From a virus (lineage: Duplodnaviria > Heunggongvirae > Uroviricota > Caudoviricetes), in the IMG/VR virus record IMGVR_UViG_2657245483_000004: 13,543 nucleotides of DNA. One strand, given 5' to 3'. The notes beneath the pieces are model-generated. The model made no database searches. It saw nothing but the letters and a program-made list of their open reading frames with translations, and was not told where the DNA came from. This document shows positions 1,641-12,463 of the stretch, piece by piece (positions within the stretch are counted from its first letter, which is position 1; each line of letters starts with the position of its first letter). The position numbers and the translations under genes were made by a program.

Positions 1641-4112
1641 TTAAGAATCAGCCTGACTCGGGATCAGTTTTTGCCAGATAACTGAAACGTATTTTGCCTG
1701 GTAACGGGCGTCATCAAGTGCATTATGGCGCTCACCTTCGAATGGAATAGCCGTTCTGGCATCGAAGTCTATGGCTTTCCCCAGCTCAACGATTGTGCGT
1801 ACATCGCGATCGTTGTAGTAACGCCACGGGCAGGGGATCCCCTGCCGTTCGTATGAACGGCGCAAAATCGTGTTGTCGAAGTTGGCTCCATTTCCCCAGA
1901 CCTGAACAAAAAATTCACCGGAGTTTTCGTCGATAAATTCCCACAATTGTAACAGTGCATCATCTAACGGGATTTCATCGGTCATAATGGCAGATTGCGC
2001 TTCGCGTGATTGCTTAAGCCACCATTTAATGGTGTCCCGATCAATGACTCCGCCAGCAGTTTCCAGATCGATAGTCTTACTAAATTCCGGTCCCATATCT
2101 CCGGTTTGCGGATCGAAAAATATTGCACCTATTGAGATGATCGGGGCATCAGGATTTTTTCCCATGGTTTCAAGGTCGATCATTAGATGGTCACACGTCC
2201 TGCTGGTGGATGTGATTTCTTGATGACCGTTCACCTTAATTGAGTGATCTGCCGTCTCGCCAGTTTCATTATCGCTATCGTGATGCTGATTGCCGCCAGT
2301 GTTCTCCTTGTGTGGATGTTCAGCGCCTTCCATTTCCTCCGGATCATCTTCCTGAACTTCAATCTGATACTCTTCATCGAATGTTTCCTGGTATGTTGCG
2401 TCGCCCATTACCGCGCCACAATCAGGGCAGTTGCCGCCGCCGGTCTGACCGCAGGCGGTGCAGACTTTTTCCACTTCCTGTTGCGCCACTGATTCAGGCT
2501 GTTTCGTTTCTGGCTCGTTTTGTAACGCATTTGGGCTGTTTTGTTCCGCTTTTTGGTAGTTCCGTTCCGATTCATGCTGGTTCTGGTTCACAGAATCGCG
2601 GGTCTGGATCCCCTTAACCCATTTCGGATCATTCGGGTCACTAATCCCTTCAACAAATTCACCACGTGATGCAGCAAGCAACTTATCGGCGTCAGGCTGG
2701 ATGATATTGGCTGCCTGCATAATTTTGTTTACTTCGTCAGCGGTAACTTTTATCGGCTCTGGTTGTTCTGAATCTTCAGCGGTATCTACATTTTGCGGTA
2801 AGCCCGTGTATGTGCCATTTTTTCGGGCAAAATATTCTTCTTTTGTGATTTCAGTGGCGCCAGCAGCCAGTGCCTTATCCAGACCAGAAAGTTTGTTTGC
2901 GCGACCGTATTTTTCTCCGTCCTTATCTGCGAAGAGGAAATAGAACGGCCCCTCACGCTCTACAGATGGTTCAGCTTCCGGCGCGGTTTCATTTTTTGGG
3001 ATATCAGATACCTCAGTTTCCACTGCATCAGTTTGTGTTTCTGATGACTGGAGAACATCAACAGTGCCCAGGTCTGTTTCTTCATTCTCAAACACGCCCT
3101 TTGTCGTCAGGTATTCGCAGATATATTTGTTCAGTGCTACGGGATCTTTGTGAATGTCGATCGGACGCTCACGGACAAGGCCAAAAATAGTTTGGCGGTC
3201 GTAGCGAAGGGCATCAGGCTGTTTGCGCATTGATGCCGAGATACGCTTCCAGTCTTCGCGGTCGTTGTCGATAACTTCATTTTTTGCCCAGCGATGGATG
3301 CTGCCGTCAATGTTTCCGGCATCCACATCACCAGGCCAGAGAGCGTAGGCCAGTTCGTCATCCAGTGTTTTCCATGTCTGCTTGTATTCGCGATGAATGG
3401 CAGCAATGACCGGGCTGATTTTTCCTGTTGAATTTTCAGTGTACTGTTGATTGGCTCTGGCGCGGGCGAGATCAACAACAGACGTGTATTTTCCGGTTTC
3501 CTTGCGTTCACCTTCGCGACGTTTTTTCCAGATGCGCATCTCTGCCTGAATTTCGGGCCATTTAGCACCAGGAATACATTTATGCTTAACCCACCCAATG
3601 GCGTGCAACTTAAGCTCCGGATACATGGCGTTAACTTCTGGCATTTTCATCAACGCTTCAACGATATGTCCGTCGAATGTTGCCATGTCTTCCTGCAACA
3701 ATTCCTGTGCGCTAATAACCATATCAACGGTGATGTTTTCACATGTGTCGAACTTAACCATGACAGCGTTCTGTACTTCAGGGGCCAGCTTGTCAAAAGT
3801 GACGTTCATCGGATCGGATTCAGTCTCAACCGGGACAAAAGAAGCAGACTCCTCATCCCAGCGGTTTTCCTGCATATATTCAGCATCCCATGAATCGAGG
3901 GCAGGGCGGGGTATGCCAGGTTTATCCTCGCAGACAATAAATTTATAAGCGCAGTCCTGAGCAGCCGGATAATGTTCCAGGAATTGCCAGTGAAATTTTG
4001 CTCGAGCACGGCGTTCGTCGCCAGCTTCAATGGCTGTGGCTACAGCCACAGCGCCTTCTTCCCTTGTTGCCAGTTCGTCAGGAATAGCGGCGCAAATAAA
4101 GACTTTACTCAT
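1641..4112 (-). CDS. Large phage exonuclease (exodeoxyribonuclease VIII-like; C-terminal DEDDh 3'-5' exonuclease domain, central zinc ribbon)
   Basis: Track ORF 1641..4148 opens at a TTG. Start placed at ATG 4110-4112 (MSKVFICAAIPDE...), which has GAGG about 10 nt upstream. C-terminus shows Exo I (MIDLETMG), Exo II (WGNGANFDN) and Exo III (HNALDDARY) motifs. Central CTACGQTGGGNCPDCG is a C-x2-C-x8-C-x2-C ribbon. A mid-protein segment (DKLLAASRGEFVEGISDPNDPKWVKGIQTRD) matches my recollection of E. coli RecE-family proteins. Confidence 0.8.
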   Translation of the reverse strand: MSKVFICAAIPDELATREEGAVAVATAIEAGDERRARAKFHWQFLEHYPAAQDCAYKFIVCEDKPGIPRPALDSWDAEYMQENRWDEESASFVPVETESDPMNVTFDKLAPEVQNAVMVKFDTCENITVDMVISAQELLQEDMATFDGHIVEALMKMPEVNAMYPELKLHAIGWVKHKCIPGAKWPEIQAEMRIWKKRREGERKETGKYTSVVDLARARANQQYTENSTGKISPVIAAIHREYKQTWKTLDDELAYALWPGDVDAGNIDGSIHRWAKNEVIDNDREDWKRISASMRKQPDALRYDRQTIFGLVRERPIDIHKDPVALNKYICEYLTTKGVFENEETDLGTVDVLQSSETQTDAVETEVSDIPKNETAPEAEPSVEREGPFYFLFADKDGEKYGRANKLSGLDKALAAGATEITKEEYFARKNGTYTGLPQNVDTAEDSEQPEPIKVTADEVNKIMQAANIIQPDADKLLAASRGEFVEGISDPNDPKWVKGIQTRDSVNQNQHESERNYQKAEQNSPNALQNEPETKQPESVAQQEVEKVCTACGQTGGGNCPDCGAVMGDATYQETFDEEYQIEVQEDDPEEMEGAEHPHKENTGGNQHHDSDNETGETADHSIKVNGHQEITSTSRTCDHLMIDLETMGKNPDAPIISIGAIFFDPQTGDMGPEFSKTIDLETAGGVIDRDTIKWWLKQSREAQSAIMTDEIPLDDALLQLWEFIDENSGEFFVQVWGNGANFDNTILRRSYERQGIPCPWRYYNDRDVRTIVELGKAIDFDARTAIPFEGERHNALDDARYQAKYVSVIWQKLIPSQADS

Positions 4113-4204
4113 TTGTTTTAACCTCATGACAGATTTAAGGATGAACAAATCCCTGCCATTGCTGGCATATAAGAATGAAACCGGATATTTATTACGGAAC
4201 TGTT

Positions 4205-4750: not shown

Positions 4751-4808
4751 AAAAAGGGCGGCAGAGCAGTCACGGAGTAAAACTGATACCGCCAAACGTC
4801 ACCAGAAA
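4751..4808 (-). ncRNA. dicF: DicF small regulatory RNA
   Basis: Minus-strand sequence TTTCTGGTGACGTTTGGCGGTATCAGTTTTACTCCGTGACTGCTCTGCCGCCCTTTTT matches recalled DicF, including the 3' GC stem plus T-run (plus 4751-4770). Positioned between ydfC and dicB. Confidence 0.8.
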
Positions 4809-8962: not shown

Positions 8963-9019
8963 GTGAAATTAGCTATCAGGCTTCAATTACCGCTGGCATT
9001 CGCATCAAAGGAGAGGAGC

Positions 9020-9376
9020 ATGGAAATAAAACCAGAGGATGAGTTAAGCAATATCGTTTTATTTCCGGTAAAAGAGGATGACCCTCGTAATCAGGTTAAT
9101 TTTCTTTATGAGCCATCGGAAAGACCATATTGTCATCACGCCTCTGTCCGGGTTGACGAAAAAGAGCGTCAGGTCCGCTGTAAAATCTGCGGTGCAGTTG
9201 TGGAGCCATTTGACTGGATGCTCTCTGTGGCGAAAAGAGAAACCAGACTGGCAGATGATGTAAGGCTCTTGCGTCAGGAGGAGCGGGAAAGGCGAAAAAA
9301 TATAGAAAAGCTAATTCAGATTGAGCGTAACGCGAAAGCGCGGATACGCAGGGCGACAAAATCCAGAACTGAATAA
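9020..9376 (+). CDS. Hypothetical protein with putative zinc ribbon and basic coiled-coil-like C-terminus
   Basis: ATG at 9020 with AGGAGAGGAG SD immediately upstream; the track's upstream GTG start at 8963 has no SD. Contains C-HH...C-x2-C (CHHASVRVDEKERQVRCKICG) and an R/K/E-rich C-terminus. Confidence 0.6.
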   Translation: MEIKPEDELSNIVLFPVKEDDPRNQVNFLYEPSERPYCHHASVRVDEKERQVRCKICGAVVEPFDWMLSVAKRETRLADDVRLLRQEERERRKNIEKLIQIERNAKARIRRATKSRTE

Positions 9377-10567: not shown

Positions 10568-10611
10568 GACTGCGGGTGCTTGAGGCTATCTGTCTCAGGC
10601 ATGAACACCAA

Positions 10612-10683
10612 AAGGCAGATAGAGAAAAGCCCCAGTTAACATTACGCGTCCTGCAAGACGCTTAACATTAATCTGAGGCCATA
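10612..10683 (-). ncRNA. Putative Sok-like antisense RNA (approximate bounds)
   Basis: Minus-strand promoter-like TTGACC (plus 10714-10719), 18-bp spacer, TAATCT. The transcript would be antisense to the mok start and leader. A minus-strand hairpin (GCGTC-ttgcag-GACGC) is followed by a T-rich stretch. Inferred by analogy with hok/sok loci; ends not determined. Confidence 0.3.
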
Positions 10684-10686
10684 TCT

Positions 10687-10746
10687 ATGCGACACATAGA
10701 GATTAGCCTCTTACGGACCGAAAGGTCAAGGAGAAGCAGGCTATGA
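10687..10746 (+). CDS. mok-like leader ORF (19 codons) coupled to hok
   Basis: ATG 10687 ... TGA 10744-10746, overlapping the hok ATG (10743-10745) as ATGA; AAGGAGAAG lies within it just upstream of hok. Shorter than the plasmid R1 mok, so assignment is by position. Confidence 0.4.
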   Translation: MRHIEISLLRTERSRRSRL

Positions 10747-10898
10747 AGCAGCAAAAGGCGATGTTAATCGCCCTGATCGTCATCTGTTTAACCGTCATAG
10801 TGACGGCACTGGTAACGAGGAAAGACCTCTGCGAGGTACGAATCCGAACCGGCCAGACGGAGGTCGCTGTCTTCACAGCTTACGAACCTGAGGAGTAA
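10743..10898 (+). CDS. hokD: Hok-family type I toxin (51 aa), HokD/RelF-like
   Basis: Not in the track (under 60 aa). MKQQKAMLIALIVICLTVIVTALVTRKDLCEVRIRTGQTEVAVFTAYEPEE: single transmembrane helix plus conserved Hok C-terminal part. Matches recalled HokD (RelF). Confidence 0.85.
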   Translation: MKQQKAMLIALIVICLTVIVTALVTRKDLCEVRIRTGQTEVAVFTAYEPEE

Positions 10899-11065: not shown

Positions 11066-11344
11066 ATGGCGCACGATACCAAATTACACAATTCTAATGA
11101 TTCTGCCGTCTTTGCCAGTAGGTGCGGACGGCGTTTTCACGCATTCAAATCAGACTGGTTCCAGCATCCTCCATGCACTGAAGAGCAGGCGGAATGGATA
11201 ATTCAGTGTTACCGCAGGCGCGGATACGAGGTTAAGAAAGCTCTTAGCCTCGACTACCGTCACTGGATAATCTCAGTCAGACTCCCTTACTCCGAACGCC
11301 CACCGCGTTCATCCCGCACATACCAGCAACGGATCTGGAGGTAA
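11066..11344 (+). CDS. rem: Rem-like small protein
   Basis: MAHDTKLHNSNDSAVFASRCGRRFHAFKSDWFQHPPCTEEQ... The track ORF starts at 10937 inside the hok terminator, so the first ATG downstream of it (11066) is used. Position between hok and the DUF968 gene matches the Qin order as recalled. Weak SD. Confidence 0.5.
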   Translation: MAHDTKLHNSNDSAVFASRCGRRFHAFKSDWFQHPPCTEEQAEWIIQCYRRRGYEVKKALSLDYRHWIISVRLPYSERPPRSSRTYQQRIWR

Positions 11345-11345
11345 C

Positions 11346-12395
11346 GTGCGGGTATTACTTCGACCTGTTCTGGTACCGGAACTCGGGGTGGTGATCGTTA
11401 AGCCGGGCCGTGAATCCATGCCGGTATTCCACAATACCCGGGTACTGGTGGAGCCGGAACCGAAAAGCATGCGTAATCTGCCGTCCGGGGTCGTTCCTGC
11501 CGTTCGCCAGCCGCTGGTGGAAGACAAAACATTGCTGCCGTTTTTCAGTAACGCACGGGTGATTCGTGCTGCTGGTGGTGCTGGTGCATTGTCTGACTGG
11601 CTGTTGCGCCATATTAAATCCTGCCAGTGGCCACACGGCGATTATCACCACAGTGAAACCGTCATTCACCGTTATGGTACCGGCGCAATGGTGTTGTGCT
11701 GGCACTGCGACAACCAGCTGCGTGACCAGACATCCGAATCACTCGAGCAACTTGCTCATCAAAACCTGTCAGCATGGATGATTGACGTCATCGGTCACGC
11801 AATAAGCGGTACGCAGGAGCGTGAATTATCTCTGGCTGAATTATCCTGGTGGGCGGTCCGAAATCAGGTGGCGGATGCGCTACCTGAAGCGGTATTACGT
11901 CGCTCGCTGGGATTACCAGCGGAAAAAATCCGCTCAATGTACCGCGAAAGCGACATCGTACCGGGAGAGCAGACCGCCACCAGCATATTGAAACAGCGCA
12001 CAAAAAATCTTGCACTGTTGCCTCACGCCCACCAGGAACAACACCCACTACAGGAAAGGACGGTGGTAAGCATCACCGTTGATCCTGAGTCTCCGGAATC
12101 TTTCATGAAGCTACCTAAACGTCGCCGCTGGGTTAAGGAGAAATACACTCGCTGGGTGAAGACACAGCCGTGTGCTTGCTGCGGTATGCCAGCCGACGAT
12201 CCGCATCATCTGATTGGTCACGGGCAGGGCGGAATGGGAACCAAAGCACATGATCTTTTTGTGTTGCCTTTATGCAGAAAGCATCACGACGAACTGCATA
12301 CGGATACCGTGGCATTTGAAGAGAAGTATGGCTCCCAACTGGAGCTGATTTTTCGATTTATCGATCACGCGCTGGCAATTGGTGTGCTGGCCTAA
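11346..12395 (+). CDS. ydfU: DUF968-family protein (YdfU-like) with C-terminal Cys/His cluster
   Basis: Track ORF, 349 aa. GTG start with GGAGG 8 nt upstream; the rem stop TAA at 11342-11344 ends one nucleotide before the GTG. C-terminal PCACCGMPADDPHHLIGHGQGG...LPLCRKHHDELH. Confidence 0.8.
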   Translation: MRVLLRPVLVPELGVVIVKPGRESMPVFHNTRVLVEPEPKSMRNLPSGVVPAVRQPLVEDKTLLPFFSNARVIRAAGGAGALSDWLLRHIKSCQWPHGDYHHSETVIHRYGTGAMVLCWHCDNQLRDQTSESLEQLAHQNLSAWMIDVIGHAISGTQERELSLAELSWWAVRNQVADALPEAVLRRSLGLPAEKIRSMYRESDIVPGEQTATSILKQRTKNLALLPHAHQEQHPLQERTVVSITVDPESPESFMKLPKRRRWVKEKYTRWVKTQPCACCGMPADDPHHLIGHGQGGMGTKAHDLFVLPLCRKHHDELHTDTVAFEEKYGSQLELIFRFIDHALAIGVLA

Positions 12396-12412: not shown

Positions 12413-12453
12413 ATGCGTGATATTCAGATGGTTCTTGAGCGTTGGGGAGCGTG
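12413..12453 (+). CDS. Q-like late antiterminator, N-terminal fragment only (truncated by the N gap)
   Basis: ATG 12413 with GGAG 7 nt upstream; encodes MRDIQMVLERWGA, matching the recalled N-terminus of Q antiterminators of phage 21 / 933W type. The frame runs into N at 12454. Confidence 0.5.
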
Positions 12454-12463
12454 NNNNNNNNNN
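12454..12463. other. Run of 10 N (assembly gap or masked bases)
   Basis: Literal n characters in the sequence; they interrupt the Q-like ORF. Confidence 0.99.

Follow-up and report, generated by a model that had tools for sequence, protein, structure and literature searches.

What is the function of the protein whose gene directly precedes the antiterminator gene Q in lambdoid prophages of Escherichia coli? The question was raised by a DNA stretch of 13,543 nt (IMG/VR record IMGVR_UViG_2657245483_000004, Caudoviricetes), hereafter referred to as the window, which covers the early part of a lambdoid prophage of the Qin/Rac type. The open reading frame (ORF) in question, ydfU, encodes YdfU, a common prophage protein of E. 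coli. An earlier sequence-only reading of the window had assigned this protein to the DUF968 family, had likened a Cys/His cluster in its last ~100 residues to HNH or zinc-finger nuclease folds, and had described such proteins as uncharacterised. In the present analysis, the fold of the C-terminal domain, the conservation of its motifs, its homology with YbcO and Ref, and the position of the gene were established. YdfU is proposed to be an active HNH nuclease or nickase serving phage recombination or replication, with an estimated probability of about 0.5.

The predicted HNH domain at the C-terminus of YdfU

The Cys/His strings quoted in the sequence-only reading were all recovered from the translation: PCACCG at residues 275-280, DPHHLIGHGQGG at residues 285-296 and LPLCRKHHDELH at residues 307-318, corresponding to nt 12168-12299. 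The AlphaFold2 model of full-length YdfU had a mean predicted local distance difference test score (pLDDT) of 88.4 and a predicted template modelling score (pTM) of 0.58. In this model, residues 285-319 form a beta-beta-alpha unit composed of two strands (285-288 and 306-309) and a helix (311-319). H288 closes the first strand, and H314 and H318 sit on the helix. A fold of the beta-beta-alpha type, the lack of which would have spoken against the sequence-only reading, is present.

The conservation of the motif residues was determined from an alignment of 35 full-length homologues with 26-81% identity to YdfU, which was also the input for AlphaFold2. The predicted structural zinc ligands C276, C279, C310 and Cys/His at position 313 were retained in 35, 26, 28 and 26 homologues, respectively. 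With C, C, C and H at positions 276, 279, 310 and 313, YdfU displays the pattern CxxC...CxxC/H of the zinc-finger HNH subclass. The predicted catalytic residues H287, H288, H314 and H318 were found in 31, 32, 31 and 31 of the 35 sequences, respectively, and D303, located at the position of the central N of HNH, was invariant. P308 was also present in every homologue.

The comparison of the C-domain profile with 25 YbcO/DUF1364 sequences by hhalign resulted in a match of 92.9% (E 3.7e-7, 74 columns), so that the profile-profile check proposed earlier came out in favour of the nuclease fold. In BLASTP, the C-domain and Ref were 34% identical over 59 residues (E 1e-4), sharing PCxxC, HHxxG and LPLCRxHH. 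The Pfam family HNHc_6 was matched by 20 of the 35 homologues (best 1.3e-7) and RecA_dep_nuc by three; beyond these two, no recurring nuclease family was detected across the homologues. No match to DUF1364 was obtained by hmmscan in YdfU or its homologues, the homology being detectable from profile to profile only. Judged by sequence, DUF1364 (YbcO) is a sister family of YdfU, and YdfU is not a member of it. The sequence searches against solved structures gave no relevant match with full-length YdfU, YbcO alone (E 0.34) with the C-terminal 89 residues, and zero matches at E ≤ 10 with profiles A1 and A2.

The fold model, the YbcO profile match and the conserved columns of ligands and catalytic residues all point to the fold suggested in the sequence-only reading, and there is little doubt that the C-terminal ~95 residues of YdfU have the HNH fold. 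This assignment is correct but already published and present in annotation databases. PF06147/DUF968 and DUF1364 were placed together in His-Me finger group 7 by Jablonska et al. 2017 (PMC5714182), who named YdfU and YbcO (3g27), noted RusA and Q as neighbours and hypothesised a recombination role for the group. A zinc-finger HNH motif in DUF968 was described by Curtis et al. 2014 (PMC4118853). The term "uncharacterised" in the sequence-only reading does not hold, therefore, as far as the fold is concerned; it stands for the biochemistry.

The N-terminal module and the linker

The N-terminal 225 residues form a compact, family-specific fold. When modelled alone, they reached a pLDDT of 90.7 and a pTM of 0.78. 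The pTM of the full-length model is lower than that of the module alone, which indicates that the two modules of YdfU are probably flexibly linked. No Pfam model covers residues 1-159. The boundaries of the Pfam DUF968 model (residues 160-346) straddle the modules and extend from the N-module helices 163-219 across the disordered linker 228-242 into the HNH domain; the DUF968 model does not represent a single domain.

The AlphaFold2 model contains a second beta-beta-alpha unit in the N-module, with strands 105-110 and 113-118 and a helix 119-125. Its four Cys/His positions share their topology with the C-terminal zinc site. C93, C118 and His/Cys at 121 were found in all 35 homologues, Cys/His at 101 and W119 in 34, and D122 in 32. 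Conservation in this alignment is higher at the N-terminal zinc positions than at those of the C-domain. The N-module very likely comprises a conserved four-ligand zinc-binding beta-beta-alpha knuckle, which is probably non-catalytic and serves targeting.

Proposed function of YdfU and its alternatives

The nuclease activity of YdfU, its nicking of DNA and its recombination role are what we infer from the data above. A recombination-linked nickase is favoured since both of the characterised proteins closest to YdfU, P1 Ref and PhiNM1 Gp16, are nickases linked to RecA. The cutting by P1 Ref is confined to RecA-bound DNA or D-loops, and the protein contains one structural zinc as well as a three-His active-site metal (PMC3973344). 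Gp16, an early phage nickase, is a RecA-binding protein that RecA enhances (PMC12817073). In the early-right (nin-type) operon, ydfU comes last among the large genes, directly before Q, so the protein is expected to be made during phage replication and recombination.

In the proposed mechanism, a zinc held by C276, C279, C310 and H313 would fasten the hairpin formed by strands 285-288 and 306-309 onto helix 311-319. The general base would be H288, which closes strand 1, with H287 next to it, and D303 would stand in for the "N" of HNH. The catalytic divalent metal would be bound by the helix residues H314 and H318. In early lytic growth, YdfU would then nick the DNA of recombination or replication intermediates, the most likely mode being nicking on RecA-bound DNA or D-loops as in the case of P1 Ref and PhiNM1 Gp16. 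The N-module with its second invariant Cys/His site would contribute to DNA or partner targeting, not to catalysis. The dependence of YdfU on RecA is speculative and of rather low probability.

Several observations weigh against the proposed nickase or against a simple transfer of function from the related families. The fold alone does not fix the substrate, since HNH domains have many unrelated roles. The scores of YdfU with the families of its characterised relatives were below the cut-offs, reaching 23.9 bits with HNHc_6, the Gp16 / Listeria Orf-HNH type (cut-off 26.6; hidden Markov model positions 123-184 of 204), and 15.4 bits with RecA_dep_nuc, the family of P1 Ref (PDB 3plw; cut-off 26.9). 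The N-terminus of Ref is disordered and basic and consists of 76 residues, whereas the N-terminal module of YdfU is folded and consists of 225. An Orf/NinB-like (1PC6) N-domain, which Curtis 2014 had proposed for "DUF968" proteins of Gram-positive origin, was not found in YdfU. The literature search on YdfU, YbcO, DUF968 and PdcB resulted in no biochemical study. In the PdcB-like clade (P0205, P0228, P0249 and P1 PdcB), both zinc sites are kept and H287/H288, H314 and H318 are lost, which implies that part of the conserved family function may not need catalysis.

The first alternative is a RecA-independent, structure-specific branch endonuclease analogous to Rap (NinG), which would cut D-loops or Holliday junctions and thereby resolve intermediates or debranch DNA prior to packaging. 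In the nin region, ydfU fills the slot before Q where lambda carries ninG (PMC4118853), and Rap itself is a His-Me finger protein (group 24 in PMC5714182). Fusions of DUF968 with Erf, Rad52 and RusA have been reported (PMC4118853), and one protein combining RusA and DUF968 was found here (P0078). Nevertheless, the NinG/Rap family (PF05766) gave no match at E ≤ 0.1 in YdfU or 34 homologues, and in sequence and structure the characterised proteins nearest to YdfU are Ref and Gp16 rather than Rap. A RusA resolvase gene shares the operon with the ydfU homologue in phages mEp390, SfV and YeP3, which argues that YdfU is not simply the phage resolvase. A branch endonuclease is considered unlikely.

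In another variant of the nuclease proposal, YdfU-type proteins would be tandem His-Me fingers, in which a degenerate N-terminal zinc module (C93, C/H101, C118, H/C121, D122) is combined with an active C-terminal HNH. Such an asymmetric "pseudo-dimer" would nick one strand of RecA-bound or branched DNA, and the PdcB clade would be its fully inactivated, targeting-only derivative. The His-Me finger assignment of the N-terminal unit is weakened by four results. Position 108, where H108 of YdfU would be the general base, is His in only five of the 35 homologues; the Foldseek search of the N-module against the PDB returned nothing below E 2.6; the hhalign comparison of the N- and C-terminal clusters placed the Cys columns in register, but with P 0.069; and no match of the N-terminal cluster with the YbcO family was obtained by hhalign (P 0.11). 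BLASTP gave no meaningful alignment between the two clusters, and the sequence search of the N-terminal cluster against solved structures gave no match. The tandem arrangement is regarded as rather improbable.

A catalytically silent protein, whose two zinc modules bind DNA or a partner and which acts as a regulator, e.g. in a late-gene switch, would explain why the N-terminal zinc site is more conserved than the catalytic histidines. It would also fit the PdcB clade, which lacks the catalytic His and keeps both zinc sites and the place before lpa, and a regulatory link would be in keeping with the conserved place immediately ahead of Q or lpa. The presence of H287/H288, H314 and H318 in YdfU and 31-32 of the 35 homologues, together with the invariant D303, is hard to explain without catalytic selection, and the Pfam and NCBIfam scans of YdfU revealed no helix-turn-helix or other regulator family. 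A silent regulator is highly unlikely on this evidence.

An equally low probability is given to a selfish or conflict nuclease, either a homing endonuclease or a prophage exclusion/defence nuclease directed against incoming or competing DNA. HNH genes are often mobile, up to 11 copies of ydfU occur per E. coli genome, and the defence HNH nucleases Cap5 and McrA were among the structural matches. The copy number simply tracks the number of lambdoid prophages, however, and the sensor domains of Cap5 or McrA type are missing from YdfU. No family of the PADLOC defence-system models was matched by YdfU (0 families at E ≤ 0.01). From Escherichia phages to those of Yersinia and Vibrio, the gene keeps a fixed syntenic place within the early operon, unlike a free-standing insertion.

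A packaging cofactor, that is, a terminase-associated HNH protein of HK97 gp74 type aiding cos cleavage, is very improbable, as ydfU is an early-operon gene with the terminase ~7 kb and many genes downstream in locus L001, in SfV a small "HNH endonuclease" is encoded separately by orf53 at the genome end, where genes of this role usually lie, and YdfU with its large N-module has 349 aa compared to ~100-120 aa of packaging HNH proteins.

The ydfU gene and the YdfU family

The coordinates of ydfU, its protein modules and the adjoining elements are presented in Table 1. The ORF is real and intact, consisting of 349 codons and a stop codon with GTG as the start. The TAA stop codon of the upstream ORF (11342-11344) is separated from this GTG by 1 nt, and the ribosome-binding site lies within the 3' end of the upstream ORF, which suggests, from the sequence, that the translation of ydfU is coupled to it. 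The homologue of the upstream ORF in RefSeq is a 92-aa "hypothetical protein" encoded immediately 5' of ydfU in locus L001. Residues 1-20 of YdfU matched the N-termini of more than 30 diverse homologues in the alignment and formed confident strands in the AlphaFold2 model. The GTG start is credible due to the GGAGG/TAA spacing, the RefSeq coding sequence (CDS), the N-terminal alignment and the modelled strands.

Table 1. Positions of ydfU, the modules of its product and the adjoining elements in the window.
Feature	Position (nt)	Strand	Basis or remark
Upstream small ORF, same operon, ≤135 codons	10937-11344	+	ORF list; PHROG 1212 at residues 70-135
GGAGG ribosome-binding site, within 3' end of preceding ORF	11337-11341	+	Sequence reading
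ydfU CDS	11346-12395	+	ORF list, translation, RefSeq, Pfam, PHROG
N-terminal module, residues 1-225, compact family-specific fold	11346-12020	+	AlphaFold2
Second Cys/His cluster, residues 93-125 (CQWPHGDYHHSETVIHRYGTGAMVLCWHCDNQL; CQWPHGDYHH...LCWHCDN)	11622-11720	+	Putative zinc site C93, H101, C118, C121
Linker, residues 228-242, low-confidence, probably flexible	12027-12071	+	Sole stretch with pLDDT < 50
C-terminal HNH (His-Me finger) domain, residues 255-349, basic stretch KLPKRRRWVKEKYTRWVK directly before	12108-12392	+	
HNH core, residues 275-318, with zinc ligands and catalytic residues	12168-12299	+	Translation, conservation
Antiterminator Q gene, first 41 nt, cut by scaffold gap	12413-12453	+	Identity to L001 Q start
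Scaffold gap, run of 10 N	12454-12463		Q gene to left, chromosomal yahK-yahL region to right

The assignment to DUF968 made in the sequence-only reading was borne out by Pfam (PF06147), with E 1.2e-76 and 257 bits against a cut-off of 27.8; residues 160-346 of YdfU were aligned with the whole profile (1-171 of 171). All 35 aligned homologues likewise matched DUF968. PHROG 96, "HNH endonuclease", matched full-length YdfU with E 3.9e-174, and PHROG 11007, of "unknown function", spanned residues 2-135. The NCBIfam scan of YdfU gave zero matches.

A match to ydfU was found in 4855 of 5426 complete E. coli genomes (~90%), with a median of 2 and a maximum of 11 places per genome. The number of phage records carrying a YdfU-encoding gene was 186, several of them with the label "HNH endonuclease", and 2878 clusters at 50% identity matched YdfU at E ≤ 0.001.

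Family variants and joined proteins

P1 PdcB (L004, 3405-4448) is a full-length homologue of YdfU with 26% identity, encoded directly upstream of the late activator gene lpa. Judging from the lost residues, PdcB is probably not an active nuclease, and the RefSeq label "HNH endonuclease" may be overstated in its case. The literature search for PdcB returned unrelated uses of the name only.

In about one quarter of the full-length homologues (e.g. P0168, P0177, P0218, P0235, P0245), C279, C310 and the ligand at position 313 are lost together. These homologues retain the catalytic histidines and look like a zinc-less HNH sub-clade.

YdfU or its N-part was found joined to foreign sequences in P0144, P0190, P0191, P0153, P0247, P0125, P0010-P0013 and P0078, the partners being tail-fibre, tail-tip J, portal, Q antiterminator and RusA sequences. 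Most of these joined proteins look like chimeras that arose by prophage deletion, read-through or assembly. The fusions of the N-part (P0144, P0190, P0191, P0153, P0247, P0125), with fragments of tail-fibre, tail-tip J or portal proteins as partners, were rejected as true architectures.

Genomic context of ydfU

The order of genes in the window is integrase, excisionase, an 835-aa 3'-5' exonuclease, DicF RNA, a cI-like repressor, a YdaT-family protein, a replisome organiser, a DUF977 protein, the hok/sok locus, the small ORF and ydfU. The Q gene begins 17 nt past the ydfU stop codon with MRDIQMVLERWGA, which agrees exactly with the beginning of the "antiterminator Q family protein" of locus L001, where the same 17-nt spacer separates the two genes. 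The location just upstream of Q, as stated in the sequence-only reading, agrees with the Q start at 12413 and with the ydfU-Q order in L001 and in phages mEp390, SfV and Yersinia phage YeP3. In mEp390, rusA, ydfU and Q follow one another in this order, and their stop and start codons overlap. The YdfU homologue of Vibrio phage Cla is encoded by the last large early gene preceding the lysis genes.

To the right of the scaffold gap, the yahK-yahL region follows, with the yahL ORF at 12728-13543; many E. coli genomes share this sequence at 100% identity. The junction between the prophage and yahL is an assembly join and not a real deletion, because the gap of 10 N separates the prophage from unrelated chromosomal sequence. 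A biological truncation of the prophage behind ydfU, with yahL joined on, was rejected due to this gap and the Q start codon.

Other elements were also located in the window. A type I toxin-antitoxin locus of the hok/sok type lies at 10574-10745 (+) and 10743-10898 (+), ~450 nt upstream of ydfU, with an Rfam sok score of 106.7 bits and a 51-aa Hok/MokW-like ORF (PHROG 251). The antisense small RNA DicF was detected at 4756-4807 (-) in the early-left region of the prophage (Rfam, 76.7 bits). The 835-aa protein is encoded at 1641-4148 (-), the position of a RecE-type gene, and is labelled "exonuclease" in RefSeq; its C-terminal 170 residues match an Rv2179c-like 3'-5' exoribonuclease/DnaQ-type domain (E 1.2e-66), and the first ~650 residues are without a Pfam match. 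Downstream of the DUF977 gene, a 137-aa ORF at 8963-9376 (+) belongs to PHROG 1621 of unknown function and shows a sub-threshold match to a TFIIB-type zinc ribbon at residues 55-92.

Significance

Few prophage genes of E. coli are as widespread as ydfU, yet it is still a "y-gene". If YdfU is an active, partner-directed nickase, this would account for a conserved step in the early development of lambdoid phages immediately before Q and could bear on prophage-mediated DNA damage. Among the related proteins, PhiNM1 Gp16 has effects on the replication of the phage and on the growth of the host, and P1 Ref raises the sensitivity to ciprofloxacin. Should the tandem His-Me arrangement be true, prophage induction in ~90% of E. 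coli genomes could add DNA damage and result in a Ref-like synergy between antibiotics and phages.

Comparison with known systems

The YdfU of the Qin prophage belongs to the same DUF968 family as the window copy and shares with it 97% nucleotide identity over the full length and the gene order before Q. The RefSeq annotation of ydfU has a CDS of the same extent (1050 nt), to which the window copy is 97.1% identical in nucleotides. There is no material difference between the two proteins: the nearest RefSeq allele differs by 12 residues, none of which is a motif residue, and the ratio of nonsynonymous to synonymous substitution rates (dN/dS) between these alleles was 0.21.

YbcO (DLP12 / phage 82; DUF1364; PDB 3g27) consists of the 96-aa domain alone and is devoid of the N-terminal module. 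Its first zinc knuckle is Cx7C instead of the CxxC of YdfU, and a single His stands in place of the HH of YdfU.

Lambda Rap (NinG) occupies the same nin-region slot before Q and is a recombination-linked His-Me finger protein (PMC5714182, PMC4118853). Its size and architecture differ from those of YdfU, and no sequence-family match between the two was detectable.

PhiNM1 Gp16, from a phage of S. aureus, is, like YdfU, encoded by an early phage gene. It falls in Pfam HNHc_6 (Orf/NinB-HNH fusions) and belongs to "HNH subclass 6", with the zinc ligands C145/C148/C181/H184 and the nuclease residues H157/H185/H189 (PMC12817073). Gp16 and YdfU have in common, at nearly equal spacing, CxxC, a His nine residues further on, and CxxHHxxxH, and the spacing of C279 and H288 in YdfU equals that of C148 and H157 in Gp16. 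The CRKHHDELH of YdfU corresponds to the CREHHxxxH of Gp16, and the zinc and nuclease residues that were mutated in Gp16 (PMC12817073) match this pattern. The HNHc_6 matches of the YdfU homologues given above lie over the HNH part of the model.

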